The translations under genes were made by a program, and so were the position numbers. Below the pieces are notes generated by a model. That model was given only the letters and a program-made list of their open reading frames with translations. It was not told the DNA's origin and did not search any database. A DNA stretch of 64,000 nt from positions 64,008 to 128,007 of the forward strand of contig CAZHIA010000007.1 in assembly GCA_964532425.1 (NCBI GenBank), given 5' to 3'. Shown piece by piece: positions 10,861 to 53,985 of this stretch (its first letter is position 1; every line of letters starts with the position of its first letter). The DNA comes from an uncultured Candidatus Saccharibacteria bacterium (GTDB taxonomy: Bacteria; Patescibacteriota; Doudnabacteria; UBA920).

Positions 10861-10974
10861 CTCCTGCCTGCCGGTAGGTAGGGTCGGCTGCCCCTACGCT
10901 GCAACCCTGGTGCAGTAGGGGTGTGCGATAACATCCCTTACCTCAGACATAGGTTTTTAAGATATAATACCTCT

Positions 10975-21930: not shown

Positions 21931-22872
21931 ATGAATAAGAGTAAGAAAATGTACAAGGATAAAAATCCAGTAAATATACCACAAAAGGCTAACTGGTTTA
22001 AGTCGGTGGCTGCTTGGCTCTTTGTGAAAGTTGCTTGGGGGGCTATAGTGTCTGGTGCAGTTTTTGCATTTTTTTGGCTAAATGGGAATGTAAGTTTTTG
22101 TGATTTTAATCTAGGTTTTGTTTCAGGGAAAATTAGAACCACAAAAAATTCAGAAATCTGCGACTCTAACAAGACAATGCAGGCACAGCTAGTTTCTCAT
22201 GATCAAAAAAATCCAAACACTCCATCCGTAGCTGGTGCTCAAGTAATCAAATGTAATTTTAGAAGTGGTGGATGGATTGATAAGGATCGCTTTAAGACCT
22301 TAGATCAGGAAAAAGTTACTTTACGGTCACCTAGCAAAAAAGGGAATGAAGGTGCTGTTATGAAATATGAAACGAGAGTCTCGCCCCCCTTTGCTAACGC
22401 TATCTCGTTTTTGCCTCTTACTCCTGATAAAGGAAATTTAATCCATGGTTACGATCAAGTTTATAGAGCTATAATTGCCGAAAGTAACTACGCTACCTTT
22501 AGTCTCGAAAAAAATAAAAATTATGCAACTGCAAATCGGAATATCGAATGGGAAAAAGTGAAGGAGCTCGATAGCCAATCTTTCAGACCATTATTTAGAA
22601 ACCAGATAGTCCCCAATACAGAAATACTGTCAACCATGAAAGTGTTGCCAGAAGCAGATTCTAATTCTCTTAGAGTCGAGTTTGTTGTGTCATATTATCC
22701 AATTTCTGATTCAGATCACAGAACCACACAGACTTTTATCTACAAAATTGGTTTACCAATAAATCCTGAAAATTTGAATGAGAGGATTATGACAGGCCTT
22801 ATAAATCCAGTCTCAAAAAAAACCTCCGAAGTGGATGCTGAGTTTAAAAGCTGTGAAATTATGATTGAATAA
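21931..22872 (+). CDS. hypothetical membrane-anchored protein (AT-rich, likely foreign)
   Basis: This 313-aa ORF lies in a roughly 35% GC segment and has one N-terminal TM helix. It is Asn/Lys-rich. Confidence 0.45.
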   Translation: MNKSKKMYKDKNPVNIPQKANWFKSVAAWLFVKVAWGAIVSGAVFAFFWLNGNVSFCDFNLGFVSGKIRTTKNSEICDSNKTMQAQLVSHDQKNPNTPSVAGAQVIKCNFRSGGWIDKDRFKTLDQEKVTLRSPSKKGNEGAVMKYETRVSPPFANAISFLPLTPDKGNLIHGYDQVYRAIIAESNYATFSLEKNKNYATANRNIEWEKVKELDSQSFRPLFRNQIVPNTEILSTMKVLPEADSNSLRVEFVVSYYPISDSDHRTTQTFIYKIGLPINPENLNERIMTGLINPVSKKTSEVDAEFKSCEIMIE

Positions 22873-22940
22873 GTAATAACCTCAAAGTAGTGTTTCCTCC
22901 ATGTTAATTTATGCAATAATTTTTTTTTTAATGTATTTAT

Positions 22941-23522
22941 ATGAAAACAATTTTGTATTTAGCCCAAAGCTTGAACGGGTTCATTGCTAAGGAGAATGGG
23001 GATACGGCGTGGGTGGGAAGCGAGGACAAGGAACGATTTAAGAACATGACCATGAAGGCCCGGAATGCGGTCATGGGAAGGAACACGTATGAGATTATGG
23101 AAGCCGAAGGCGATTTTCCGTTGGATGGCCGGCTCAACGTGGTCATGACGCGCAATCTGCAGCCATCGACTGAGAATGTCATGTTTACGGACAAGACCCC
23201 GGGAGAAGTTATTGATTTCATGAAGGAGCAGGGTTTTACCGAGACCATGGTTATTGGCGGTGGCCGCATTGCCAAGTCATTTTTGGAAGCCGGATTGATC
23301 GATGAACTTTATATATCCATCGAACCCATTCTGTTCGGCAAAGGTGTGCCGCTTATTGGCGGCGAGTTTGTTGAACAGGGCGAGTTGGAGGTAAATTTGG
23401 AGTTTTTGGATTTTATGCGGATCTCGGAAAACGAGTTGCAGTTACACTACCGCGTCGTGTCTCAGAAAGACATGGAGTCAGGCACGGGTAAAGAAATTGA
23501 AGAGTTTATGAATAAAGAATGA
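22941..23522 (+). CDS. dihydrofolate reductase family protein (RibD C-terminal domain-like)
   Basis: It shows the pattern LNGFIA...W......F......A.VMGR.TYE...PL..R.N.V.TR....IGGG.IA.SFL.AGL.DEL typical of RibD_C/YwjB-type reductases. Confidence 0.6.
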   Translation: MKTILYLAQSLNGFIAKENGDTAWVGSEDKERFKNMTMKARNAVMGRNTYEIMEAEGDFPLDGRLNVVMTRNLQPSTENVMFTDKTPGEVIDFMKEQGFTETMVIGGGRIAKSFLEAGLIDELYISIEPILFGKGVPLIGGEFVEQGELEVNLEFLDFMRISENELQLHYRVVSQKDMESGTGKEIEEFMNKE

Positions 23523-23526
23523 AACC

Positions 23527-23814
23527 ATGAACTCTTACTTCGTATATATTTTGGCGAGCCAAAGGAATGGCACATTGTATATCGGAGTGACGAATAATCT
23601 GATTAAGCGCGTTTGGCAACATAAGAATAAAGTCGTTGATGGTTTTACAAAGAAATACGGAGTTGGCATATTGGTTTATTTCGAGGAGACGTCGGAGATC
23701 GAATCAGCGATTCAAAGAGAAAAGCAGTTGAAGAAATGGAATCGTGCTTGGAAGATTAGGCTCATTGAAGAAAAGAATCCGTTTTGGAAAGATCTTTACA
23801 ACGGACTTTTATAA
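23527..23814 (+). CDS. GIY-YIG nuclease family protein
   Basis: It has the YFVYIL...GTLYIGVTNNL.RR motif of the GIY-YIG/URI domain. It is 95 aa. Confidence 0.7.
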   Translation: MNSYFVYILASQRNGTLYIGVTNNLIKRVWQHKNKVVDGFTKKYGVGILVYFEETSEIESAIQREKQLKKWNRAWKIRLIEEKNPFWKDLYNGLL

Positions 23815-24030
23815 AGAGATGTGTCATCCTCGGGCCGAGTGCATCCGAGGTCCCGGGGATCCATATGCCTGGATTCCCGCCTCCGCGGGAATGACACAGG
23901 GGAGAGCGAGAATGACAAGGGGAAAGTAGGAGTGACGCTAAAAATTATTAAGTACGTATAATGCTGGTGAGGTTAGAATTTTGACATAAAAAATACCGGA
24001 CCACTATTGTGGTCCGGTGGGGTACCGAAG

Positions 24031-27746: not shown

Positions 27747-29303
27747 ATGTTCAATCATTTAAATCATTTAAGTCTTGTCACTGTGCCCTTGTCCAAATCC
27801 AAAATTTTCATCTTCATCTGCATTTCTTTCAGTGCCGGCATCGGCATTGCTTCGGTTATTACTATCGATCGGTTCATACTCTTTGCCTGGCTGGCCGCAG
27901 CGTGTACAATATTTGCCGTATGTTTTGGTCGCCACCGGAAGACAGCGCTGCTTGCGCTGTTTTTATTTTTTGCGGGTAGCGGAGCATGGCGGCTTTCAGC
28001 GGCTGTCGTGCAAAGCGAATATCAGGACCAGATCGGCTCTTCCGTGCAAATAGAAGGGTACATTGTTGCCGAGCCGGATGTGAGGCAGGATCGACAGTAT
28101 CTAGCGTTTCGTCCTGACGGCCACCGGCAGAACATCCAGCTGTTCATGCCGTTGTATGCGGAGTATGCATACGGCGACCGGGTGGTGGTCAAAGGCAAGC
28201 TCGCTGAGGCCAAGGTCTTCGAAGATTTTGACTATCGGGGGTACTTGCAGCGGTTTAATATTTTTGCGGTCATGAACCGCCCGCAGGTGCTCGTATTAAA
28301 ATCGGGGCAAGGCAATCCCGTTATCCAGGGCCTGCTGGCGGTCAAACATGCATTCGCCGCCAATGTGGCCCAAAAGTTCCGTGAACCGCATGGTAGCCTG
28401 CTGCTCGGTATACTTATTGGGGCCAAGAAGGCCATGCCGCAGCCGGTGCTCGATGATTTTGCCGCAACCGGGACTTCCCACATTGTTGCCGTGTCCGGTT
28501 ACAATATCAGCGTCATCGTCATGGCACTCGGATATTTGGCTTACGCAGTCGGCCGGCGCTGGAGCTTTGCGGCTGCCGCGGTGTTTATTATCGGTTTCGT
28601 AATCATCTCCGGAGCTTCCGCTTCGGTCGTGCGGGCTGCTGTTATGGGCAGCCTGTTAATGATTGCAATGGCCATTGGCAGGCAATATGCCGTGGGACCT
28701 GCCATGTTTGGGGCAGCCGCGTGCATGCTCTTCATCAATCCGAAAATTCTGTTTTATGATATCGGTTTTCAGTTATCGTTTGCCGCGACCATGGGCATTG
28801 TCTACTTTATGCCGCTGCTCGAGCGCCTCACGGAACACTGGCCGAAGCTGTGGACCGTCAAGAGTAATTTGCTGGTGACATTGTCGGCCACTGCTGCGAC
28901 GTTGCCGCTTTCGCTGGCTCACTTCGGCTTGTTGAGCATTGTCGCCCCGCTCGTGAATGTCCTGGTACTACCCATCGTGCCATATGCCATGCTGTATGGA
29001 TTTTTGTCGGCAGTGCCCATTGCCGGAACCGGATTCGCTTTTGTCACGAGTCTGGTATTGACCTACATATTGACGGTCATTACGTGGTTCGCCCGGTTGC
29101 CGTTCAGCCATGTCCAAATTGCCACGAGCGGATGGGTGGCAGCGCTGCTCTATGGCGTTTTAGTGTTAATATATTTTTCGCTGCGATGGATGGCGTTTAA
29201 GCGGGCGGTTAAAATGCAAGGATGTTCGCCGATCGCTGATAAAACGCTGACAGGTACGCCTGCCTGCTCGCCTCGCTTTCGCTCTGGCGAAGCGGGCCGG
29301 TAG
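27747..29303 (+). CDS. comEC: ComEC/Rec2 family competence channel protein (no beta-lactamase domain)
   Basis: It has multiple TM helices and the competence-domain motif TGTSHIVAVSGYNISVI. An N-terminal DUF4131-like segment is present. The start is uncertain: TTG 27723 versus ATG 27747. Confidence 0.7.
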   Translation: MFNHLNHLSLVTVPLSKSKIFIFICISFSAGIGIASVITIDRFILFAWLAAACTIFAVCFGRHRKTALLALFLFFAGSGAWRLSAAVVQSEYQDQIGSSVQIEGYIVAEPDVRQDRQYLAFRPDGHRQNIQLFMPLYAEYAYGDRVVVKGKLAEAKVFEDFDYRGYLQRFNIFAVMNRPQVLVLKSGQGNPVIQGLLAVKHAFAANVAQKFREPHGSLLLGILIGAKKAMPQPVLDDFAATGTSHIVAVSGYNISVIVMALGYLAYAVGRRWSFAAAAVFIIGFVIISGASASVVRAAVMGSLLMIAMAIGRQYAVGPAMFGAAACMLFINPKILFYDIGFQLSFAATMGIVYFMPLLERLTEHWPKLWTVKSNLLVTLSATAATLPLSLAHFGLLSIVAPLVNVLVLPIVPYAMLYGFLSAVPIAGTGFAFVTSLVLTYILTVITWFARLPFSHVQIATSGWVAALLYGVLVLIYFSLRWMAFKRAVKMQGCSPIADKTLTGTPACSPRFRSGEAGR

Positions 29304-29499
29304 GCAGGCTGAACTAACGCTGATAAGTTGTGCGAGTACTGAATTTATTACCACAATCAGGTTTGGTGAACATATCGTATTCAGCAATCTTTCGGCGTCG
29401 AAATCAGCGTGCATTCAGCGGTATGGGGTGTTTGCTCCTTGTCTGTCTATATGATAAAATCATTAAAGAATTCTTAAATACTAAGACTTTAAGGAACGC

Positions 29500-30288: not shown

Positions 30289-30379
30289 CATTTAACATTT
30301 AACACCTGACATTTAACCTTTGACAGCTGCAATTGCAGGAAGTCAAATGTCACATGTCATATGTCAAAGGTTTTCTAAA
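30289..30379 (+). promoter_or_regulatory. conserved leader element, copy B (upstream of ndk)
   Basis: It has ACATTTAAC repeated three times, CCTTTGACA, the heptamers ATGTCAC ATGTCAT ATGTCA, and then GTCAAAGGTTTTCT before the ATG. CCTTTGAC and GTCAAAGG can pair. Confidence 0.5.
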
Positions 30380-30874
30380 ATGGAACGATCACTCGTTTTG
30401 CTCAAACCCGATGCGGTTGACCGCGGACTCGTCGGAGAAATTATCCAGCGCTTCGAGCGCGTGGGTCTCAAGATCGCCGGTTTAAAAATGCTCCACCCCA
30501 AGCGCGAGCATGCCGAGAAACATTATACGGAAGATCTGACCATCCGCCGCGGGCAGCATGTCCGTGACCTTATGATCGAGATGTTGACTTCAGGTCCTAT
30601 CGTAGCCGTATGCCTGGAAGGCGTAGAAGCGGTGGAACTGGTCCGTAAGATGGTCGGCACCACCGAGCCGAAGTCTGCCGCTCCGGGAACCATCCGCGGC
30701 GATTACGCGCATGTCTCGTTCAAGCACGCGGATGAAAAGAAGATCGGCGTGTATAATCTCATTCATGCCTCCGGCAGCGTTGAAGAAGCCAAGCAGGAAG
30801 TGGATGTCTGGTTCGCGCCGGAAGAGCTTGTTGACCATAAACCGGCGTATACGCAGAAGACGATAGCGTACTAG
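30380..30874 (+). CDS. ndk: nucleoside diphosphate kinase
   Basis: It has ERSLVLLKPDAV, GLVGEII.RFE and the active-site region NLIHASGSVEEA. The start follows the conserved leader element. Confidence 0.85.
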   Translation: MERSLVLLKPDAVDRGLVGEIIQRFERVGLKIAGLKMLHPKREHAEKHYTEDLTIRRGQHVRDLMIEMLTSGPIVAVCLEGVEAVELVRKMVGTTEPKSAAPGTIRGDYAHVSFKHADEKKIGVYNLIHASGSVEEAKQEVDVWFAPEELVDHKPAYTQKTIAY

Positions 30875-30913
30875 GGGACAAGTAAGGAGTAAATAGTAAA
30901 CAGCGATAAGTAG

Positions 30914-30984
30914 GGGCGGGCATTGCCCGCCCTTTAAAGTTTCAAAAACAGCCATATTTATTAATAATATGGCTGTTTTTTGGT
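30914..30984 (+). terminator. tandem terminators after ndk
   Basis: A GGGCGGGCATTGCCCGCCC hairpin is followed by AAAAACAGCCATATTTATTAATAATATGGCTGTTTTTT. Confidence 0.65.
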
Positions 30985-31049
30985 TATTGACATTTTGCCT
31001 AAAAAATGCTATAATTATAGGAAAATTTGAACTGGAGGGTTTAAATCAT

Positions 31050-31295
31050 ATGTCTCGCAAAGAGAAGATTTTTGAAGCCGCGGTGTACAGTTTAATCGCG
31101 GCTAGTGTCCTTTTCATCGGCCTCTTGGCAATCACTGCCCCTCACAATCCGCAGCTGGCCAACCGCCCGGCTGCGACTACGGCCGTCCAGAAGAAAGAAG
31201 CACCGAAAAGACAAGGTATGTCTGACGCGGCCATCGTCGGCGCCACGCTCGGCGGCCCTGAAGGTATGATGGCAGCCGAACTGCTCTTTAACTAG
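31050..31295 (+). CDS. hypothetical small membrane protein
   Basis: It is 81 aa with a GGAGGG RBS and one TM helix. Confidence 0.4.
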   Translation: MSRKEKIFEAAVYSLIAASVLFIGLLAITAPHNPQLANRPAATTAVQKKEAPKRQGMSDAAIVGATLGGPEGMMAAELLFN

Positions 31296-31396
31296 TTCGG
31301 TACGAGACATTCGCACCAGTCCCGAACATCGCTTCGGGACCATTCTTGAGCCTATTTGTGCAAACGGGCTCAAGAGTGAACAGGAGGAATTTTAGA
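31296..31396 (+). promoter_or_regulatory. conserved structured leader, copy 1 (paralog array)
   Basis: The hairpin GTCCCGAA...CTTCGGGACC is followed by TTCTTGAGC-hairpin-GCTCAAGAGTG and then AGGAGG. The same architecture appears at 32348-32441 and 32901-33008. Confidence 0.45.
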
Positions 31397-31894
31397 ATGG
31401 AAAACCGGAATGAGTTGCCAGCAGGCTTTGATGACGGCTTTTGGGCCCTCGTCGGTGTTTGTTTTTTAGTCTCCCTGCTCTTCTGGATCGGTGTATGGGA
31501 CTTCCAGGAGTATCTGAAGTCTTTCAGCACCGAGGCAATCCACGTGAACGCGGTTGTCGCCGGCAAGGGCGACATACAGCGCTTTAACCTTGAGCAGGGT
31601 GCCACGACGGGCACTGCTGTGGCTGTAGGTACAGCCTTGGCCGGTGGCAGCAAGAAAGCCGTTGCGATCAATGGCATCGCGAGCACACTCACCTCGGGGT
31701 TTCTTTCTGCCGAAGGCTGCCGCATGCCGCTCACTGTAGAAGGTGAACCCAAGCTCCTCAAAGCGCCGGAAGAAGCATGCAAATCCGGTAAGTTTCCGGC
31801 CGGTACTGCTGTGACCATCAAAAAGGTCACGGAGTACCGTAGTCTCGGTGATCCGCACACCAAGACCGTCAACAAGGTCTGGTACGAGTGGTAA
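31397..31894 (+). CDS. membrane-anchored small protein, paralog family member
   Basis: It has an AGGAGG RBS, an N-terminal TM and a beta-rich domain. Its leader is conserved with the next two paralogs. Confidence 0.45.
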   Translation: MENRNELPAGFDDGFWALVGVCFLVSLLFWIGVWDFQEYLKSFSTEAIHVNAVVAGKGDIQRFNLEQGATTGTAVAVGTALAGGSKKAVAINGIASTLTSGFLSAEGCRMPLTVEGEPKLLKAPEEACKSGKFPAGTAVTIKKVTEYRSLGDPHTKTVNKVWYEW

Positions 31895-31927
31895 CCAGGT
31901 ATTCAATCGGATTTCCGGAGGCATGAT

Positions 31928-32347
31928 ATGACCGATTTCTTGAATGAATTATTCGAATCAATCTCGTTCATGTGGTCTGATGGTGCGCCTGGCAAGGTAG
32001 TTACGGTTTTGGTCCTAGCCGTATTAGTGATACTTGCTGGATTGGTGGCGTGGGGGCTATACGCGCTGCTGGAGTCGGCGTTCATATCGACCCGCGCTGC
32101 CATTGGTACGGTGGTAAAGAAGGAATATCAACCGGAGACCAGTGACTACATTTATATCGATGGAATTCCGTATCCTTCCACTTCCGGCCCCTCTTATAAC
32201 CTCCTTGTTGAAACGCAAGGGGAATATGGGTGGATTTCCGTAACGCCGGAGTTCTATACCAAGGTCAAGGTCGGCAGACAAGTCCGCGTCGCTATCGGAC
32301 ACGGCCGGCTTACCGGTAAGTTGCAAGTAAAGCAGATTTATGGCTAA
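31928..32347 (+). CDS. membrane-anchored small protein, paralog family member
   Basis: An N-terminal TM is followed by a domain ending ...GKLQVKQIYG, similar to the 33009 protein, which ends ...EIKVIQIYA. Confidence 0.45.
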   Translation: MTDFLNELFESISFMWSDGAPGKVVTVLVLAVLVILAGLVAWGLYALLESAFISTRAAIGTVVKKEYQPETSDYIYIDGIPYPSTSGPSYNLLVETQGEYGWISVTPEFYTKVKVGRQVRVAIGHGRLTGKLQVKQIYG

Positions 32348-32441
32348 CCAGCCGTCGTCTGTATCCCCAAGCTGAGCGCTTGGGGACCTTTCTCCAGTCT
32401 CCCGAAGGGGGATTGAAGATTGGTACCCTTAAGGAGGGAAT
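32348..32441 (+). promoter_or_regulatory. conserved structured leader, copy 2
   Basis: It reads CCCCAAGC...GCTTGGGGACCTTTCTCCAG...GATTGAAGATTGGTAC...AAGGAGG. Confidence 0.45.
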
Positions 32442-32900
32442 ATGGATATGATTTTTTCGATTGTTGTCGGACTCGTGATCTACGTGCTTGGGTATTGGCT
32501 CATCGGGCTTCCTATGGCCCGAAAAGGCCTGGAAGTATGGAAGAGGAGCTACCCGACCGGGAGCAATGGCGGATTTTGGGGATTCATTCTTTTCCCGGTG
32601 ATGAGTTCCGAGGGAAATGTGGGTAGCATCTGTCAATCGACGTTTTTGATGAGCACGATTGGGAGCTTTGACCTATTCAGCTGTTGGGAAAATGAACGCC
32701 TTGAAGCGGAACACAAGTACATTACCGCTTCGGCTGCGTTTTGGCCATCGCGTATAGCGTTCAATCTGATCGCGATGGCGGTCATGACCGTCTTAGGCCT
32801 ATTGGGTCTGGTCTTAATGGCCTTCATTGAAGGTCTGCCGGCACTGGCCTCAAAGGCGTACAAGTCCGTGACCGGCCAGCGGGCTACGACAAGCAGTTGA
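32442..32900 (+). CDS. hypothetical multi-pass membrane protein
   Basis: It has an AAGGAGG RBS and 3-4 TM helices. Confidence 0.45.
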   Translation: MDMIFSIVVGLVIYVLGYWLIGLPMARKGLEVWKRSYPTGSNGGFWGFILFPVMSSEGNVGSICQSTFLMSTIGSFDLFSCWENERLEAEHKYITASAAFWPSRIAFNLIAMAVMTVLGLLGLVLMAFIEGLPALASKAYKSVTGQRATTSS

Positions 32901-33008
32901 CGTCAATCGGACAACGGCACCCGAAGCTTCGGCTTCGGGACCTTTCTTGAGTCCACAAGACTTGTGGGTTCAAGATTGGTACAGAAACCAAAAAAGGAGG
33001 ACTTGAAT
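32901..33008 (+). promoter_or_regulatory. conserved structured leader, copy 3
   Basis: It reads CCCGAAGCTTCGGCTTCGGGACCTTTCTTGAG...TTCAAGATTGGTAC...AAGGAGG. Confidence 0.45.
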
Positions 33009-33494
33009 ATGAAGAGCGGATCTGATTTTGATTCCGTGTGGTCTGCCCTGCGTGAAATGGTTTCGGTCCTCTATGGACTGGTAGTTACATACGCGCTGTT
33101 TATCGCGGGTATCTACCAAAGTGGAGGATGGTGGCGGGTGGTCGCGGTTGTTGTAGCAATCGCTACTCTTTTGCTGATCGTGGCGTGCGTGATCGCATTC
33201 AGCGTGATGCTGGACAAGGCTTGGTTGCCGGTCCGGCAGGCAAAAGCCATACTGCTCCGCAAAGACAGTCCGGTAGGCTCGGCTTCGGTGGAATATGCAG
33301 GCCAAAGGGTACAGGTGGGCGTCATCGTCGAGGTGACCGGATTCAACCTATTATTTGGCCTCCCGGAAGGCAGGGCCTGGGTTGAGGTGCCGGTTGAGGT
33401 CTACCAATACCTTGCGCTCGGCAAATACTACCGCGTGGACTATACGCGGACCCGCTGGGGCGGGGAGATCAAGGTCATCCAAATCTACGCTTAG
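33009..33494 (+). CDS. membrane-anchored small protein, paralog of 31928..32347
   Basis: It has an AAGGAGG RBS and a TM followed by a domain with a conserved C-terminal ...IQIYA. Confidence 0.45.
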   Translation: MKSGSDFDSVWSALREMVSVLYGLVVTYALFIAGIYQSGGWWRVVAVVVAIATLLLIVACVIAFSVMLDKAWLPVRQAKAILLRKDSPVGSASVEYAGQRVQVGVIVEVTGFNLLFGLPEGRAWVEVPVEVYQYLALGKYYRVDYTRTRWGGEIKVIQIYA

Positions 33495-33571
33495 GCCGGT
33501 ACGAAGGTGCCGGTCTTTTCTTATTGCTGTTTTTTCAGCGGTCTGGTAGAATGGTCCTTCAAGGAGGAACC

Positions 33572-33865
33572 ATGAATTTGCATCTGCCTACTTGGTGGGA
33601 CATTTTCAGCCAGGCGGGGATACTCCTCAGTGTAGTCGGATATCTCATGCTAGCCAAAAAGAACAGATGGGGCTGGGTTATTGGCCTCGCTTCGCAGCCG
33701 TTCTGGTTTTATTCATCCATTACCAACCATCAGATTGGGATCATAATAAACACGGTATTCTTTTCCGCTGCCCAGCTCTACGGTATCTGGAAATGGTTCG
33801 GTCACAATCCGGAATGCGAGGGAAAAAAGCTGGTTCTTCAGACTGCCAAAGACGAGGTTGTGTAG
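33572..33865 (+). CDS. hypothetical small membrane protein
   Basis: It has a promoter-like TAGAAT box and an AAGGAGG RBS, and three predicted TM helices. Confidence 0.4.
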   Translation: MNLHLPTWWDIFSQAGILLSVVGYLMLAKKNRWGWVIGLASQPFWFYSSITNHQIGIIINTVFFSAAQLYGIWKWFGHNPECEGKKLVLQTAKDEVV

Positions 33866-34081
33866 TCATGTTTGAAGAACCGGATACACCTCCGCAAAAT
33901 CGTTTTCCGGCGGGACTGGCGCTTCCCACAATTTTGGCAGTGCTCGCTATTGCGGCGATCGTGGTTTTCTATGCCGCGGCCCATTGATGCGCGTACCTCT
34001 TGCCTTGCCTTGTAATCGGGGCAGGGCTTTTATAAACAACAAAGACCGGTTTTGAACCGGTCCCTGCTTCAGCGTTAATTC

Positions 34082-34105
34082 AGCCTGCCTACCGGCAGGC
34101 AGGCG
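34082..34105. repeat. REP-like palindrome GCCTGCCTACCGGCAGGCAGGC
   Basis: It is near-identical to 48967-48990, with degenerate copies at 10865-10890 and 53795-53815. Confidence 0.5.
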
Positions 34106-34130
34106 TACCTGTCAGCGCATGATCAGCGGT

Positions 34131-35636
34131 TTATTTCTTGCGAAAAAATCTCGGTAGTTTGAAGTCCTGCAATTTGAGTTCCTTAACGCGCTGGATAATG
34201 CCTTTGTCATGCTCGTTAAGGTAGTGGCGGATTTTGTTGCGCGCACTGCTGGTCTTGGCTGCAGCCAGCCAGTCGCGGGAAATGACTGCCTCTTTTTTTG
34301 ACTTGATGATTTCGACCACGTCGCCTTTGTTGAGTTCGTCGGTGATTTTTGCCATCTTGCCGTTGACCTTGGCGCCCATCATGTGGTAGCCGAGGTCGCT
34401 GTGTACCGCAAAAGCAAAATCAATAACCGTGGCGCCGACCGGCAGGTCTTTAATGTCGCCTTGCGGTGTAAAGACAAAAATGCGGTCACGGAAAAAGTCG
34501 ATTTTTAGACTTTCTAAATATTCTTCCGGGTCCGTGGTTTCTTCCTGCCAGGATTGCAATTCTTTGATCCAGTTGGCCTGCAGGCGGCCGGCCTCTTCCG
34601 GTTTGCCTTCCTCAGTATAGAACCAGTGGGCGGCAATGCCGCGCTCCGCCTCTTCGTGCATAAGGTCGGTGCGAATCTGTAATTCAAACACGTTCCCGTG
34701 CTGGTCGAACACGGTGGTGTGCAGGCTCTGGTAGCCGTTTGGCTTGGGCGTGCTGATAAAATCCTTAATGCGTCCCGGCACCGGCTGGAAGTGCTTATGG
34801 ATGATCCCTAAAATAGCGTAGCAATCAGCCGTGGATTTGGAGATGATGCGTAAGGCGATAATATCGTAAATTTTCGTGATATCGCCGTCATACTTTTTGA
34901 GTTTGTTGAACAGGGAATAGAGCCGTTTAACGCGACCGGAAATTTCCATGTATTTCTGTCCTTCTGTCCTGAAAATGTGCGCGAGCTTCTTTTCCATGTC
35001 CTTCAGAGACTCTTCGCGTTTCTGCAAGGCCTCTTCCAGCTTATTCTTAGTCTCGGCATATTCCTTCGGGTACACGATCTCGAACGCCAGGTCTTCCAGC
35101 TCGTCTTTCCAAGCTCCAATGCCCAGGCGTCCGGCAATGGGCGCATACATCTCCAGCGTCTCCAGTGCCACCTTGTGCTGCTTCTGCGGCGGGAGATGTT
35201 CAATGGTTCGCATGTTGTGGAGCCGGTCGGCCAACTTGATGAGAATGACGCGCACGTCTTCGCCCGTGGCGATGAACAACTTGCGCAGGTTTTCCACGTA
35301 CATCTTGTCTTTGGCTTCCTTCAGCCGGACCTGACCGAGCTTGGTTACGCCGTCAATGAGCCGGGCGACCTCTTCTCCGAATTTTTCTTTGATAGTGTCC
35401 AGAGTGACTTGGGTATCTTCCGGAACATCATGCATTAGTGTTGCTGCCAGTGTCGGTACGTCCGGAAAAATCTGTCCGAGAATAATAGCTGCACCTTGCG
35501 GATGGACGAAGTAGTCTTCGCCGCTCTTGCGTTTCTGTCCGTCGTGGGCATTTTGGGCAAGATCAAAAGCGTCCTGAAGGATCTTTTCTTCCTCTGGAGA
35601 GAATTTATGCGGGATACTTTTGAGAAAATTGTCCAT
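34131..35636 (-). CDS. RelA/SpoT family (p)ppGpp synthetase/hydrolase (HD + synthetase + TGS, no ACT/C-terminal domains)
   Basis: It has the HD motif MHDVPEDT, the synthetase motif GYQSLHTTV and a TGS region. It is 501 aa. Confidence 0.8.
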   Translation of the reverse strand: MDNFLKSIPHKFSPEEEKILQDAFDLAQNAHDGQKRKSGEDYFVHPQGAAIILGQIFPDVPTLAATLMHDVPEDTQVTLDTIKEKFGEEVARLIDGVTKLGQVRLKEAKDKMYVENLRKLFIATGEDVRVILIKLADRLHNMRTIEHLPPQKQHKVALETLEMYAPIAGRLGIGAWKDELEDLAFEIVYPKEYAETKNKLEEALQKREESLKDMEKKLAHIFRTEGQKYMEISGRVKRLYSLFNKLKKYDGDITKIYDIIALRIISKSTADCYAILGIIHKHFQPVPGRIKDFISTPKPNGYQSLHTTVFDQHGNVFELQIRTDLMHEEAERGIAAHWFYTEEGKPEEAGRLQANWIKELQSWQEETTDPEEYLESLKIDFFRDRIFVFTPQGDIKDLPVGATVIDFAFAVHSDLGYHMMGAKVNGKMAKITDELNKGDVVEIIKSKKEAVISRDWLAAAKTSSARNKIRHYLNEHDKGIIQRVKELKLQDFKLPRFFRKK

Positions 35637-48778: not shown

Positions 48779-49761
48779 CAACCATCTAATTCACTATTTC
48801 TCTAATTCACTAATTTACTAGCTAGTTTGTTTCTTCCATCATGGGCCAGAGCAGAGAAGGTTAACCAAATTTGGGTCGCTATGACCCTTCGGCCTCGTCA
48901 CTGCTGTGACCCATAATGGTAGAAGTAAAACACAATTTTAGAAGGGAAGATTGCCGCGCTCGGATGCACCTGCCTACCGGCAGGCAGGCTCGCTCGCAAT
49001 GACATGTAAGACTTTGTCATTGCGAGGAGAAAAGGACTTTAACTTTTCGACGACTTGTCCGCTGTAGCCTTGGCGAAGGTGGAAGCAATCTTTCGGTGTC
49101 ATTCCGGAGACCACGAAGCGAAGCGGAGAGTCATCCGGAATCCATTCTCTATAGTTGCCATACTATTCACTAGTCACTGACCACTATTTTGTATCCACCA
49201 TTGTGGATCTAAGCACGGAAGGTAAAATTTTTATGTCGCCTGTGGCGGCACCGACCTCATCCGAATGCTTTGATTCACAATAGCGGATGCAATCCGCTGG
49301 AGCCAGCCTGCTGGGCCAGGCTCGCATTCATAAAATGAAAATAAAGAATAGAGAATAGCCCCTCCGCGCACCAGGAGGGGGTGGATCACCGGGACTCGAA
49401 CGAGTGACAACGAATCCATAAAGGACGATTCGAGGATCAAGGACCATACATGAGCGTGCATGGGGCGTTTAAGTCCCATAACCGAGCGGTGAAAGCTGCT
49501 CAAATATTTAACCCTGCCGGGCGGCGACAATTATCCCCGGCATAAAGCCCTGAAAAGCAGGAGGAGGAAAAAGGACATGCGCTACAAGTTTCGTTTATGA
49601 ATCTCTACGGGTCTAGACCGGGACTGACCCAACCGGTTGCTGGCTCCGGCGGGAGATCACGGCGTATCCAAAACCACGCGCTGGGCAAGCCTCGCTTGCC
49701 CTTCTTTCTGAGCTAGCCTATCTGTAATGTTTAGATAGGCAGCTGAGAAGGAAGGAGGATT
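48779..49761. other. ORF-free structured region (~1 kb) rich in family repeats
   Basis: No credible ORF was found. It contains REP and MITE family copies and the hairpins CCCCTCC...GGAGGGGG and GGGTCGCTATGACCC. It carries the inverted partner of CCACAATGGTGGAT, whose other copy is at 47700. Confidence 0.4.
48993..49150. repeat. composite of MITE-family termini (head-to-head CTCGCAATGAC/GTCATTGCGAG, then GTCATTCCGGAG...CATCCGGAATCC)
   Basis: The family motifs are juxtaposed, and it shares the CGCTGTAGCCTTGGCGAAGGTGGAAGCAATC block with the element at 50280-50310. Confidence 0.4.
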
Positions 49762-53762: not shown

Positions 53763-53985
53763 CTGCCTGCCCCGGCACCATCATATGGTGCTCGGGCCTG
53801 CCGGTAGGCAGGGAGCAAATATAGGTTCAATTTCTTGGCAGCTTGCAGTATGGAACCTCTATTTTGTCCACTTTGACAACCCTAACTTTAGGGAATACAA
53901 TAGGCCTATAGTTTCCAGCTTGTCGCTGGCTGCTGTGTCCTCGGCAGTCAACATCCAGGCTTGGAAAGCCACCAGGAGGAAGTGA

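Follow-up and report, generated by a model that had tools for sequence, protein, structure and literature searches.

Hairpins located between the cistrons of an operon have well-known precedents, among them the early RNase III sites of phage T7, the REP stabilisers of E. coli (malEFG/hisJQMP) and the hairpins of the Rhodobacter puf operon. In the T7 case, the early sites found in one transcription unit resemble each other. To our knowledge, post-transcriptional control in the bacteria of the Candidate Phyla Radiation (CPR) is almost unstudied. In plastids, the intercistronic expression elements (IEE) are stem-loops placed around cleavage sites (PMC2230500). In this work, we focus on a small membrane-protein operon, g1-g5, that is specific to one species and lies in an uncultured Doudnabacteria (CPR) genome; the whole stretch of DNA that was analysed, 64 kb in length, will be called the window. 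Three of the four intercistronic spacers of this unit carry, ahead of g2, g4 and g5, a module of about 62 nt in which two hairpins, P1 and P2, abut each other. Like the T7, REP, puf and plastid elements, the module puts stem-loops between the cistrons of one predicted transcript, one hairpin closely following the stop codon of the upstream gene and another closely preceding the ribosome-binding site of the downstream one. As for the T7 sites, the copies within the transcription unit resemble each other, and P2 contains an internal loop between its lower and upper stem. The sequences of these elements are however unrelated to that of the module, which consists of two different hairpins in a fixed order, and is found in one operon of one CPR lineage only. 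REP elements occur genome-wide, whereas the module does not, within the 64 kb examined.

The operon belongs to a 3.3 kb island, the g1-g7 cluster, inside the variable spacer between ndk and relA. This spacer is a hot spot in which related genomes carry different genes, and the g1-g7 cluster was not found in about 40 related genomes. Two terminator hairpins on the ndk side (30902-30980) lie directly 5' of the operon promoter (30987-31015, + strand), which matches the consensus at 12 of 12 positions (TTGACA, 17 nt, TG-TATAAT) and has an extended -10. The g1-g5 genes end on an intrinsic terminator (33493-33535, + strand) made of a stem and a T-tract, which is kept in L048, the sole and diverged orthologous locus available for comparison. 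The promoter scan of the leaders returned no promoter-like site inside them. As predicted from these signals, g1-g5 is one transcription unit, which has one strong promoter and one strong terminator. A putative g6-g7 promoter (33524-33552, + strand; TTGCTG, 17 nt, TGG-TAGAAT) was read from the letters of this region, and its extended -10 is kept in L048; the promoter scan did not call this site, and a separate g6-g7 promoter is what we infer here.

The earlier note had described six consecutive small genes as a tandem array of paralogues, each starting with a transmembrane (TM) helix and each placed behind a near-identical leader. The genes are indeed small, consecutive and on the + strand, and there are seven of them (g1 to g7). 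N-terminal hydrophobic helices are found by the hydropathy scan in six of the seven ORFs; g6 falls below the threshold of the scan and is called a membrane protein because of its match to the PnuC/NMN-transporter family of Pfam. Four genes are orphans. The first one, g1 (31050-31295, 81 aa), has one N-terminal TM helix and forms a singleton cluster among 15 billion proteins, with no family match. The second one, g2 (31397-31894, 165 aa), has one TM helix and a Gly/Ala-rich extracytoplasmic part, and its single-sequence AF2 model is uninformative (pLDDT 46). The g4 product (32442-32900; 152 aa, or 150 aa from the second ATG) has at least two TM helices, and its gene sits between module copies 2 and 3. 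The last orphan, g7 (33868-33987, 39 aa), has a single TM helix, and its start is inside a hairpin in which 33832-33843 is paired with 33870-33881. As for g6 (33572-33865, 97 aa), it is a half-size PnuC-like membrane protein that reaches 36.6 bits against Pfam PF04973 (PnuC / NMN_transporter; cut-off 27.3) over profile positions 4-70 of 175, which corresponds to a half-length, 3-TM version, and that also matches phrog_2421 (E = 7e-11).

The array is not one of paralogues, since only g3 (31928-32347, 139 aa) and g5 (33009-33494, 161 aa, two TM helices and an OB-fold domain) are similar, with 25% identity over 134 aa (BLAST, E = 3e-8), all the other gene pairs having E > 0.01. The kinship that had been proposed between the genes at 31397, 31928 and 33009 thus stands for the last two, while g2 was rejected as a relative (BLAST E = 0.7, hhalign probability 0.5%), as was g4 (family-profile probability 0.1%). 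Above the word filter, g5 has one other relative, P0002 (62% identity). When g5, P0002 and g3 are combined in one profile, a real family is retrieved, the best matches of which are phrog_6716 and phrog_4392; no PDB sequence was found with the family profile. The AF2 model of g3 (pLDDT 96.6) displays N-terminal helices and then a beta-barrel, and in Foldseek it comes closest to phage proteins that are themselves uncharacterised (Vibrio phage River4, E = 1.3e-8, TM-score 0.76). Both g3 and g5 are membrane-anchored OB-fold proteins of an uncharacterised family that is also present in phages. The same succession of an N-terminal TM helix and a small OB-like beta-barrel characterizes the DUF2500 (PF10694)/DUF3592-type proteins, a weak and fold-level likeness. 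Foldseek gives weak matches of g3/g5 to the DUF2500 structure 3q6c, together with 3rd4 and 2l0c, which we take to be related to it, and 2 of the 44 family members touch PF10694 at about 1e-3 (~8e-4). Unlike these proteins, however, g3 and g5 have no Pfam match at E <= 1, and the phage proteins remain their best structural matches. Membership of DUF2500 was rejected for both.

The three copies of the module are all on the + strand, at 31319-31378 (copy 1; P1 31319-31340, P2 31341-31378), 32365-32424 (copy 2; P1 32365-32385, P2 32386-32424) and 32920-32980 (copy 3; P1 32920-32939, P2 32940-32980). P1 is an 8-bp GC-rich hairpin that begins 17-23 nt past the upstream stop codon (23 nt past that of g1 for copy 1). 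P2 is a 16-17-bp hairpin (ACC-UU-UCUUGAG...CUCAAGA-UU-GGU), and because P1 abuts it without any linker, stacking of the two could give about 25 bp; for comparison, intercistronic sites of the RNase III type have about two helical turns of double strand, often with an internal loop. The Shine-Dalgarno (SD) sequence follows the end of P2 by 4-14 nt (4 nt in copy 1). This AAGGAGG had been counted as an element of the leader; it is a plain SD sequence, also found before g1, g3 and g6. Nor is every gene behind a leader, since g3 is preceded by a 33-nt spacer only, without module.

The leaders of g2, g4 and g5 have in common GCTT(C/G)GGGACC(A/T)TTCT(T/C)(G/C)AG and (C/G)AAGA(G/T)TG(A/G), and the 64 kb contain exactly three occurrences of the 15-mer GGGACCWTTCTYSAG, all of them at module sites; with 2 mismatches allowed, shuffles contain 0.8 matches to it. 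The repeat is real, and it is less than near-identical: the identity of the whole core is 61-74% among copies, the high values (80-95%) being those of two blocks of 20 and 17 nt, and the tips of P2 are unrelated in sequence, with their pairing still present. The flanking coding DNA (150 nt on each side) shows 47-55% identity, against a shuffled baseline of 47 +/- 3%, so the similarity of the leaders stops short of the genes. An unfiltered covariance-model (CM) search of the 64 kb window retrieved the three copies only (72.8, 77 and 83.1 bits for copies 1, 2 and 3), the next best match being at 12 bits (E = 0.56). No copy was found in 45 related Doudnabacteria loci, and the pattern was absent from viral and metagenome pattern scans; the module is not a widespread functional class. 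No family of Rfam 15 matches it, the sole gathering-level match in the window being a tRNA, and at E <= 10 over 30850-34150 nothing overlaps the three modules. We also observed a REP-like palindrome of different sequence, which is scattered across the same window.

Each leader folds as two adjacent hairpins, with z-scores of -5.2, -3.1 and -4.4 for copies 1, 2 and 3, and the module persists in the MFE structure of a longer mRNA context. RNAalifold predicts P1 and P2 independently, and 6 pairs display compensatory double changes; in particular, both hairpins of copy 2 show compensatory replacements of G-C by C-G as compared with copies 1 and 3. In the four-sequence alignment that includes the orthologue, 85.5% of the cells are paired; the corresponding values are 76% for shuffles and 30-58% when the partners are slid. 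None of 500 shuffles matches the observed pairing or covariation score, in a control that ignores relatedness and with statistics that are weak because the sample is of only four sequences from two lineages. In all four copies, orthologue included, the + strand is more stable than the - strand by 2.8-9.3 kcal/mol because of G.U pairs, and this bias therefore favours an RNA over a DNA structure. These observations support the structured RNA leader put forward in the earlier note, the repeated leader being a structured element probably maintained at the RNA level. Its loops vary from copy to copy; what is conserved is either base-paired or lies where the two helices meet. The unpaired probability of the SD is 0.77, 0.37 and 0.62 for copies 1, 2 and 3; it is not consistently hidden by the module, and the copies share no alternative fold that would sequester it. 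The SD being mostly unpaired, the module therefore fits a stabiliser rather than a translational occluder. A riboswitch or other ligand-binding leader was considered and rejected, for there are no conserved unpaired nucleotides and no alternating SD-sequestering platform. The UU/UU internal loop of P2 is found in copies 2 and 3, between cistrons, and neither this loop nor the ACC/GGU extension is kept in copy 1 or L048.

We tentatively propose that the module is an intercistronic mRNA processing and stability element, the stems of which would be kept while its copies are locally recombined or duplicated, a reading that we find plausible and that falls somewhat short of probable. Cleavage by an endonuclease would take place at, or close to, either the P1/P2 junction, which is conserved, or the UU/UU internal loop. 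P1 would then serve the upstream segment as a protective 3' hairpin, and P2 would serve the downstream cistron as a protective 5' hairpin beside the ribosome-binding site. P1 and its U-rich tail may in addition terminate a fraction of the transcripts, such a leaky termination possibly existing alongside the processing and stability role. Through the cleavage, stabilisation and termination that we infer here, segments of differing abundance would be obtained from one promoter. The copies would have arisen, and stayed alike, through recombination or duplication at the locus that accompanied the gain or loss of genes; g4 and one copy form an indel relative to L048, and the stems would have been kept by compensatory change. 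Against this role, the g2-g3 junction works without a module; the low conservation of the leader in L048, the lack of the ACC/GGU extension and of the UU/UU loop in copy 1 and L048, and the absence of the module from the related loci speak against it as well.

The history of the copies has to be considered in the light of L048, in which both hairpins of the leader are kept, with a P1 of entirely different sequence and the base of P2. No segment of the locus is less conserved than the leader: its identity is 57%, as compared with 71% for the coding sequences and 77% for the terminator/promoter spacer, and under the CM the L048 leader reaches only 9.6 bits, the paralogous copies scoring 73-83 bits. 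Selection on the primary sequence is therefore weak or lineage-specific, and the idea that this sequence is under stronger selection than the coding regions is not supported. L048 lacks g4 between its g3-like and g5-like genes, and lacks one module copy as well. As the orthologous leader is less conserved than both the coding sequences and the paralogous copies, and as g4 is missing there, the copies appear to have spread or been homogenised locally. The similarity within the genome would thus owe much to recent copying or concerted evolution, a view close to the alternative of gene conversion that had been raised for the leaders. One could go further and regard the module as a neutral relic: a palindromic spacer, for instance an old terminator, which local duplication, recombination or gene conversion has copied together with gene indels and which is simply tolerated. 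The paralogous cores are indeed more alike (61-74%) than the leader of copy 3 is to its orthologue (58%); direct repeats of the module lie on both sides of the g4 indel; and the module is restricted to one species-level lineage, in which the genes are orphans. However, the differences are unevenly distributed, with two well-conserved blocks and a tip that is replaced and yet paired, six pairs carry double changes, both hairpins are kept in L048 despite extensive sequence change, and the G.U pairs favour the transcribed strand. Neither neutral drift following a duplication nor a contiguous conversion tract would be expected to leave a conserved base, a variable tip and a preserved pairing, and a single tract cannot yield such a block-tip-block mosaic. 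We consider the neutral relic unlikely, while granting it a real share of the probability.

It is also conceivable that partial intrinsic termination at P1 is the main function, lowering expression stepwise for g2-g3, g4 and g5, P2 being incidental. The module resembles intra-operon attenuator terminators in that the GC-rich stem of P1, closed by a stable loop (UUCG in copy 3), is followed by a pyrimidine/U-rich stretch, ACCUUUCUU, and in L048 UUUCUUGAAU comes directly after P1. A loose terminator scan, which asks for 5 or more T in an 8-nt stretch beginning 0-2 nt past the stem, is passed by P1 and its tail in copy 3, whereas copies 1 and 2 fail even at this level. Indeed, unlike that of intrinsic terminators, the U-tract is poor: it is interrupted, begins 2-3 nt past the stem, and doubles as the 5' arm of another conserved hairpin, while the clear terminators of this genome (33493-33535, 34002-34036) have UUUU immediately after the stem. 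Moreover, the 3' arm of P2, conserved and covarying, is transcribed after the termination decision and would be left unexplained. All this makes termination as the main function quite improbable.

A regulated riboregulator would switch the downstream cistron, either as a binding site for a protein or ligand or through a put/EAR-like action on RNA polymerase. The HK022 put RNA has a two-stem architecture. It mediates factor-independent antitermination (PMC11658703). The two stems of the module, about 65 nt in all, resemble it superficially, and the junction sequence is conserved in the three copies; however, the module lacks conserved unpaired nucleotides, bulges and any multi-helix junction, its loops vary among all copies, no SD-sequestering fold is common to the copies, Rfam is silent even at E <= 10, no strong terminator downstream within the operon would need antitermination, and the conserved blocks do not persist in the orthologue, which leaves such a regulator very unlikely.

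CALIN arrays can lack an integrase, so that a missing IntI alone is not decisive. The locus is like integron attC/CALIN arrays in several respects: small promoter-less orphan membrane-protein genes stand behind one promoter; the imperfect palindromes repeated between genes have a conserved inverted base and a variable centre; a gene with one repeat (g4 and a module) forms a presence/absence unit between lineages; and the island occupies a hot spot with different genes in related genomes. A DNA-level recombination site at cassette boundaries, or a small REP/MITE-type mobile repeat, is nevertheless the least credible reading, since the three modules have no RYYYAAC / GTTRRRY (R''/R') core sites or extrahelical bases and possess a separate first hairpin, the 30 largest ORFs of the window, scanned with Pfam, proved to be housekeeping genes only, without any Phage_integrase domain or recombinase, the G.U strand asymmetry points to RNA rather than to folded single-stranded DNA, no target-site duplications or terminal inverted repeats exist beyond the hairpins, and a mobile repeat would be represented by only 3 copies in 64 kb, every one of them within a single operon. 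A slim chance exists that the module combines both natures, being the junction signal of a CPR gene-cassette system and a transcript processing signal for a lineage-specific factor. Were this true, membrane-protein genes devoid of promoters would be gained and lost at the hot spot according to an integron-like logic, without integron parts, g4 with one module being a unit of this type.

The module is a local, lineage-restricted feature, and it opens no long-standing question. If the processing and stability role that we favour is true, a CPR bacterium would provide a compact and portable intercistronic element, possibly usable as a part in synthetic operons. As for Doudnabacteria themselves, the locus shows accessory membrane-protein genes accumulating at one hot spot, between ndk and relA.

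The interval bounded by ndk (30320-30874) and by a RelA/SpoT-family gene that runs convergently on the - strand (34131-35636) holds seven small + strand open reading frames, namely g1 (31050-31295, 81 aa), g2 (31397-31894, 165 aa), g3 (31928-32347, 139 aa), g4 (32442-32900, 152 aa), g5 (33009-33494, 161 aa), g6 (33572-33865, 97 aa) and g7 (33868-33987, 39 aa). By a hydropathy scan, g1 to g5 and g7 have hydrophobic helices at the N-terminus, and g6 does not. A perfect TTGACA-17-TATAAT promoter is found on the + strand at 30987-31015, a clear stem followed by a T-tract forms a terminator after g5 (33493-33535, +), and a second terminator follows g7 (34002-34036). An extended -10 promoter (TGG-TAGAAT, 33544-33552), kept in the ENA contig L048 that carries the only orthologous g5 leader, appears to serve g6-g7 specifically. 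Judging from these signals, g1 to g5 are thus a single predicted operon, running from one promoter to one terminator, and g6-g7 probably form a second transcription unit. Translation of g4 could start at either of two ATGs in the same frame, 6 nt from each other (ATGGATATG, 32442-32450); the NCBI call uses the first, and the Logan call the second, which gives 150 aa. The Shine-Dalgarno (SD) sequence lies 4 nt from the first ATG and 10 nt, by count, from the second, so that the second start is favored. The g6 stop codon and the g7 start codon are covered by a 12-bp inverted repeat (33832-33843 and 33870-33881, GGUUCUUCAGAC and GUUUGAAGAACC), which may couple or mask the translation of g7.

A RelA-family protein search gave 45 related loci, mostly in MAGs of Candidatus Doudnabacteria or Patescibacteria (62-79% identity), which keep the gene order comEC-ppi-ndk-relA. 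Across 39 related genomes the spacer between ndk and relA runs from 13 bp to about 2.1 kb, against 3.26 kb here (30875-34130). Synteny and local searches showed that relatives of g1-g7 are encoded in none of the 45 loci, and the long spacers of other genomes are occupied by genes of unrelated small membrane proteins or of lipoproteins, or by an RHH-like gene. This makes the cluster an island specific to its lineage, set in a variable hot spot. Among ~15 billion proteins, g1, g2, g6 and g7 are singleton clusters, and the only member of the g4 cluster is the same gene in its 150-aa form. The island had no BLAST match in collections of phages and plasmids. The 30 largest ORFs of the window are housekeeping genes (such as hisS, ftsA, ftsZ, RNR and groEL), and no recombinase was found among them. 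Two other features of the region can be mentioned. The GC content drops to 0.41 at 22001-24000, against ~0.50 elsewhere in the window, with a DHFR/RibD_C gene inside. Copies of a GC-rich, REP-like palindrome (GCCTGCCTACCGGCAGGCAGGC) are dispersed over the window, at 10862-10883 (-), at 29245-29323 (in inverted form, its loop enlarged by a 28-nt insertion), and at 34083-34104, 48968-48989 and 53796-53812, a count that no shuffle reached; the copies at 29.2 and 34.1 kb have longer flanks in common and, in inverted orientation, bracket the ppi-ndk-island segment.

The earlier note described these genes as a tandem array of paralogues, but g3 and g5 are the only paralogous pair (25% identity over 134 aa, E = 3e-8), and g2 and g4 are unrelated to their family. 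A search with the g3 sequence found only itself, while a profile built from g5, g3 and P0002, the g5-like protein of L048, retrieved 174 representatives at E <= 1e-3 among 1.84 billion proteins. Most have ~140 residues and begin with a TM helix, and the consensus reads ...DSxFLP...G.V..K..P...W.L...SV...Y...G..V.V.Y..GRxSG..YIK.I. Matches to DUF2500 or DUF7489, at ~1e-3, are few, and 9 of 44 members match phrog_6716 and 7 of 44 phrog_4392, both of unknown function; the profile has no match among PDB sequences. The AlphaFold2 model of g3 made with the family alignment (pLDDT 96.6) shows N-terminal helices followed by a beta-barrel. Foldseek searches of solved structures gave weak OB-fold matches only, including the DUF2500 structure 3q6c, and also 3rd4 and 2l0c, which we take to be related. 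Good full-length matches were found among uncharacterized phage proteins (Vibrio phage River4, E = 1.3e-8, TM-score 0.76), and a Caulobacter phage CcrPW protein also matches (E = 2e-6). The DUF2500-like guess made earlier is thus fair as to the fold of g3 and g5, but it is not a family assignment. A single-sequence model of g2 was uninformative, and PADLOC and NCBIfam gave nothing meaningful on the cluster proteins. The three-TM g6 is a half-length PnuC-like protein, matching the PnuC/NMN-transporter family (PF04973) over profile positions 4-70 of 175 only and phrog_2421 at E = 7e-11; such half-transporters occur in phages, and g6 may be one. Four g3/g5-family members in other organisms (P0010-P0013) are single genes in ordinary chromosomal neighborhoods, with neither repeated leader nor arrays. 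At the P0010 locus, a 700-nt gap upstream of the gene contains two sets of direct repeats (L077, 3476-3759), one of 38 nt with 89% identity and one of 25 nt with 96% identity; their sequence is unrelated to the leaders.

Three of the four intra-operon spacers, those before g2, g4 and g5, contain a repeated module (copies 1 to 3, at 31319-31378, 32365-32424 and 32920-32980). They have in common a 20-nt block, GCTT(C/G)GGGACC(A/T)TTCT(T/C)(G/C)AG, 80-95% identical between copies, and a second block of 17 nt that ends in AAGA(G/T)TG(A/G). A degenerate 15-mer matches the 64 kb at three places and no more, each of them in one of these leaders. The repeat noticed earlier is therefore real, and it stops at the gene boundaries, since the coding DNA on each side (150 nt) is at background identity (47-55%). 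"Near-identical" was too strong a description, as the whole 61-63-nt core is 61-74% identical between copies, against a shuffled baseline of 47 +/- 3%. Nor does the AAGGAGG included in the conserved leader belong to it: this is an ordinary SD, found before g1, g3 and g6 as well. The modules stand ahead of three mutually unrelated genes, and the paralogue g3 has none. We also observed that the 13-mers starting at the stop codons of g1 (31293-31305, TAGTTCGGTACGA) and g5 (33492-33504, TAGGCCGGTACGA) are similar and that copies 2 and 3 end in GGTAC, which may be a trace of unit joining or chance.

The fold of every copy consists of two hairpins set directly side by side, an 8-bp GC-rich stem (P1) and a long stem (P2) with the consensus ACC-UU-UCUUGAG...CUCAAGA-UU-GGU, with fold z-scores of -5.2, -3.1 and -4.4 for copies 1 to 3. 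Unguided RNAalifold gives the same two helices, with six pairs in which both sides have changed and pairing is kept. A C-G pair in P1 of copies 1 and 3 is replaced by G-C in copy 2, and the tips of P2 have no sequence in common and are paired in all. When the L048 leader is added, 85.5% of the cells of the four-sequence alignment pair, against 76.4 +/- 2.4% after shuffling (0 of 500 shuffles were as high as the real alignment) and 30-58% in slid-partner controls; double changes are found in six pairs of this alignment. In all four leaders, the + strand is more stable than its reverse complement because of G.U pairs (-33.7 vs -30.9, -36.2 vs -31.5, -36.6 vs -30.3 and -20.9 vs -11.6 kcal/mol), an asymmetry which points to the transcript, and not the DNA, as the constrained molecule.

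P1 starts 17-23 nt past the upstream stop codon, which by our estimate is too far for a terminating ribosome to cover, and P2 ends 4-14 nt ahead of a strong SD that is largely unpaired (P(unpaired) of 0.77, 0.37 and 0.62 in copies 1 to 3). The module is kept in the MFE of longer transcripts, and a promoter scan found no promoter-like sites within the leaders. The copies have no conserved loop or junction nucleotides and no alternative fold in common that would sequester the SD. Together with the hairpin positions and the exposed SD, this fits an intercistronic processing or stability element, possibly with partial termination at P1, a reading that we favor tentatively. The transcript would be cut near the conserved P1/P2 junction or the internal loop, P1 becoming the 3'-end hairpin of the upstream mRNA segment and P2 the 5'-end hairpin of the downstream one, while P1 with its ACCUUUCUU tail may also terminate some of the transcripts. 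P1 of copy 3 with its tail passes a loose terminator scan, but the tract is poor beside the clear terminators of this genome. T7 RNase III sites and the REP and puf stabilizers are analogues of such a module, and the plastid IEE is another (PMC2230500).

Possible, but a good deal less probable, is that the copies are a neutral relic of recombination. On the 714 bp of the L048 contig, a gene ends in ...HGRLTGKLLIKRVHG, similar to the end of the g3 protein, ...GHGRLTGKLQVKQIYG. After it come a leader of 87 nt, the gene for P0002 (the only g5 relative above the word filter, 62% identity) and the conserved terminator/promoter. As g4 is missing, g4 and one module copy are an indel that separates the two lineages. 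Primary sequence is not strongly kept between them: the leader of L048 is 57% identical to that of g5 (71% for the g5 coding sequence), BLASTN aligns it only from the SD onward, and paralogous module copies are closer to each other than orthologous ones, which is the signature of recent copying or concerted evolution. The P1 of L048 has an entirely different sequence in which the hairpin is kept (UGCUCUG-C-GGC GAAA GUC-U-CGGGGUA), and the P2 base is retained (UUUCUUGAAUCC...GGGUUAAAGA). The block-tip-block mosaic with its re-paired tip does not look like the product of a single contiguous conversion tract or of neutral decay after duplication. Of the earlier proposal of structured leaders selected as RNA, the maintained helices hold (RNAalifold, covariation, strand bias), but the sequence similarity would come largely from local copying. 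The g5-g6 spacer with its terminator and promoter (33495-33571, L048 623-697) is 77% identical, above both coding sequence and leader.

That the modules act mainly as attenuating terminators is unlikely. A regulated riboregulator or put-like element is less likely still. The likeness to put RNA lies in its architecture, and a put-like antiterminator was considered and rejected. Factor-independent antitermination is cited for put in PMC11658703. Riboswitches and ribozymes were rejected, given the lack of conserved loop or junction nucleotides and of any Rfam match on the leaders in gathering or permissive scans (E <= 10), and so was a thermometer or other SD occlusion, given the exposed SD. In-frame N-terminal extensions of g2 and g5 were also considered and rejected. 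An attC-, REP- or MITE-like DNA site is very improbable, as searches found neither the defining motifs of attC, nor an integrase among the 30 largest ORFs of the window, nor dispersed copies in the 64 kb and the 45 related loci.

With a covariance model made from copies 1 to 3, these reach 73-83 bits and the L048 leader 9.6 bits; a search of the window with filters off finds no fourth copy (next best match 12 bits), and the model finds none in the 45 related Doudnabacteria loci. The arms of the g6/g7 inverted repeat are faintly like the P2 base (8.5 bits, not significant). DNA pattern scans gave 16 chance matches in a viral collection, none with the two-hairpin fold, and 0 matches in a metagenome collection with a strict pattern; a g5-leader pattern gave 10, all by chance or self-complementary by construction, one of them in a high-GC acyl-CoA dehydrogenase locus. 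As far as these sequences tell, the module belongs to a familiar type of feature, of which it is a new, unnamed example with a very narrow distribution. We conclude that two processes would have contributed to it, local spread by recombination tied to gene gain and loss, and selection keeping the two helices.
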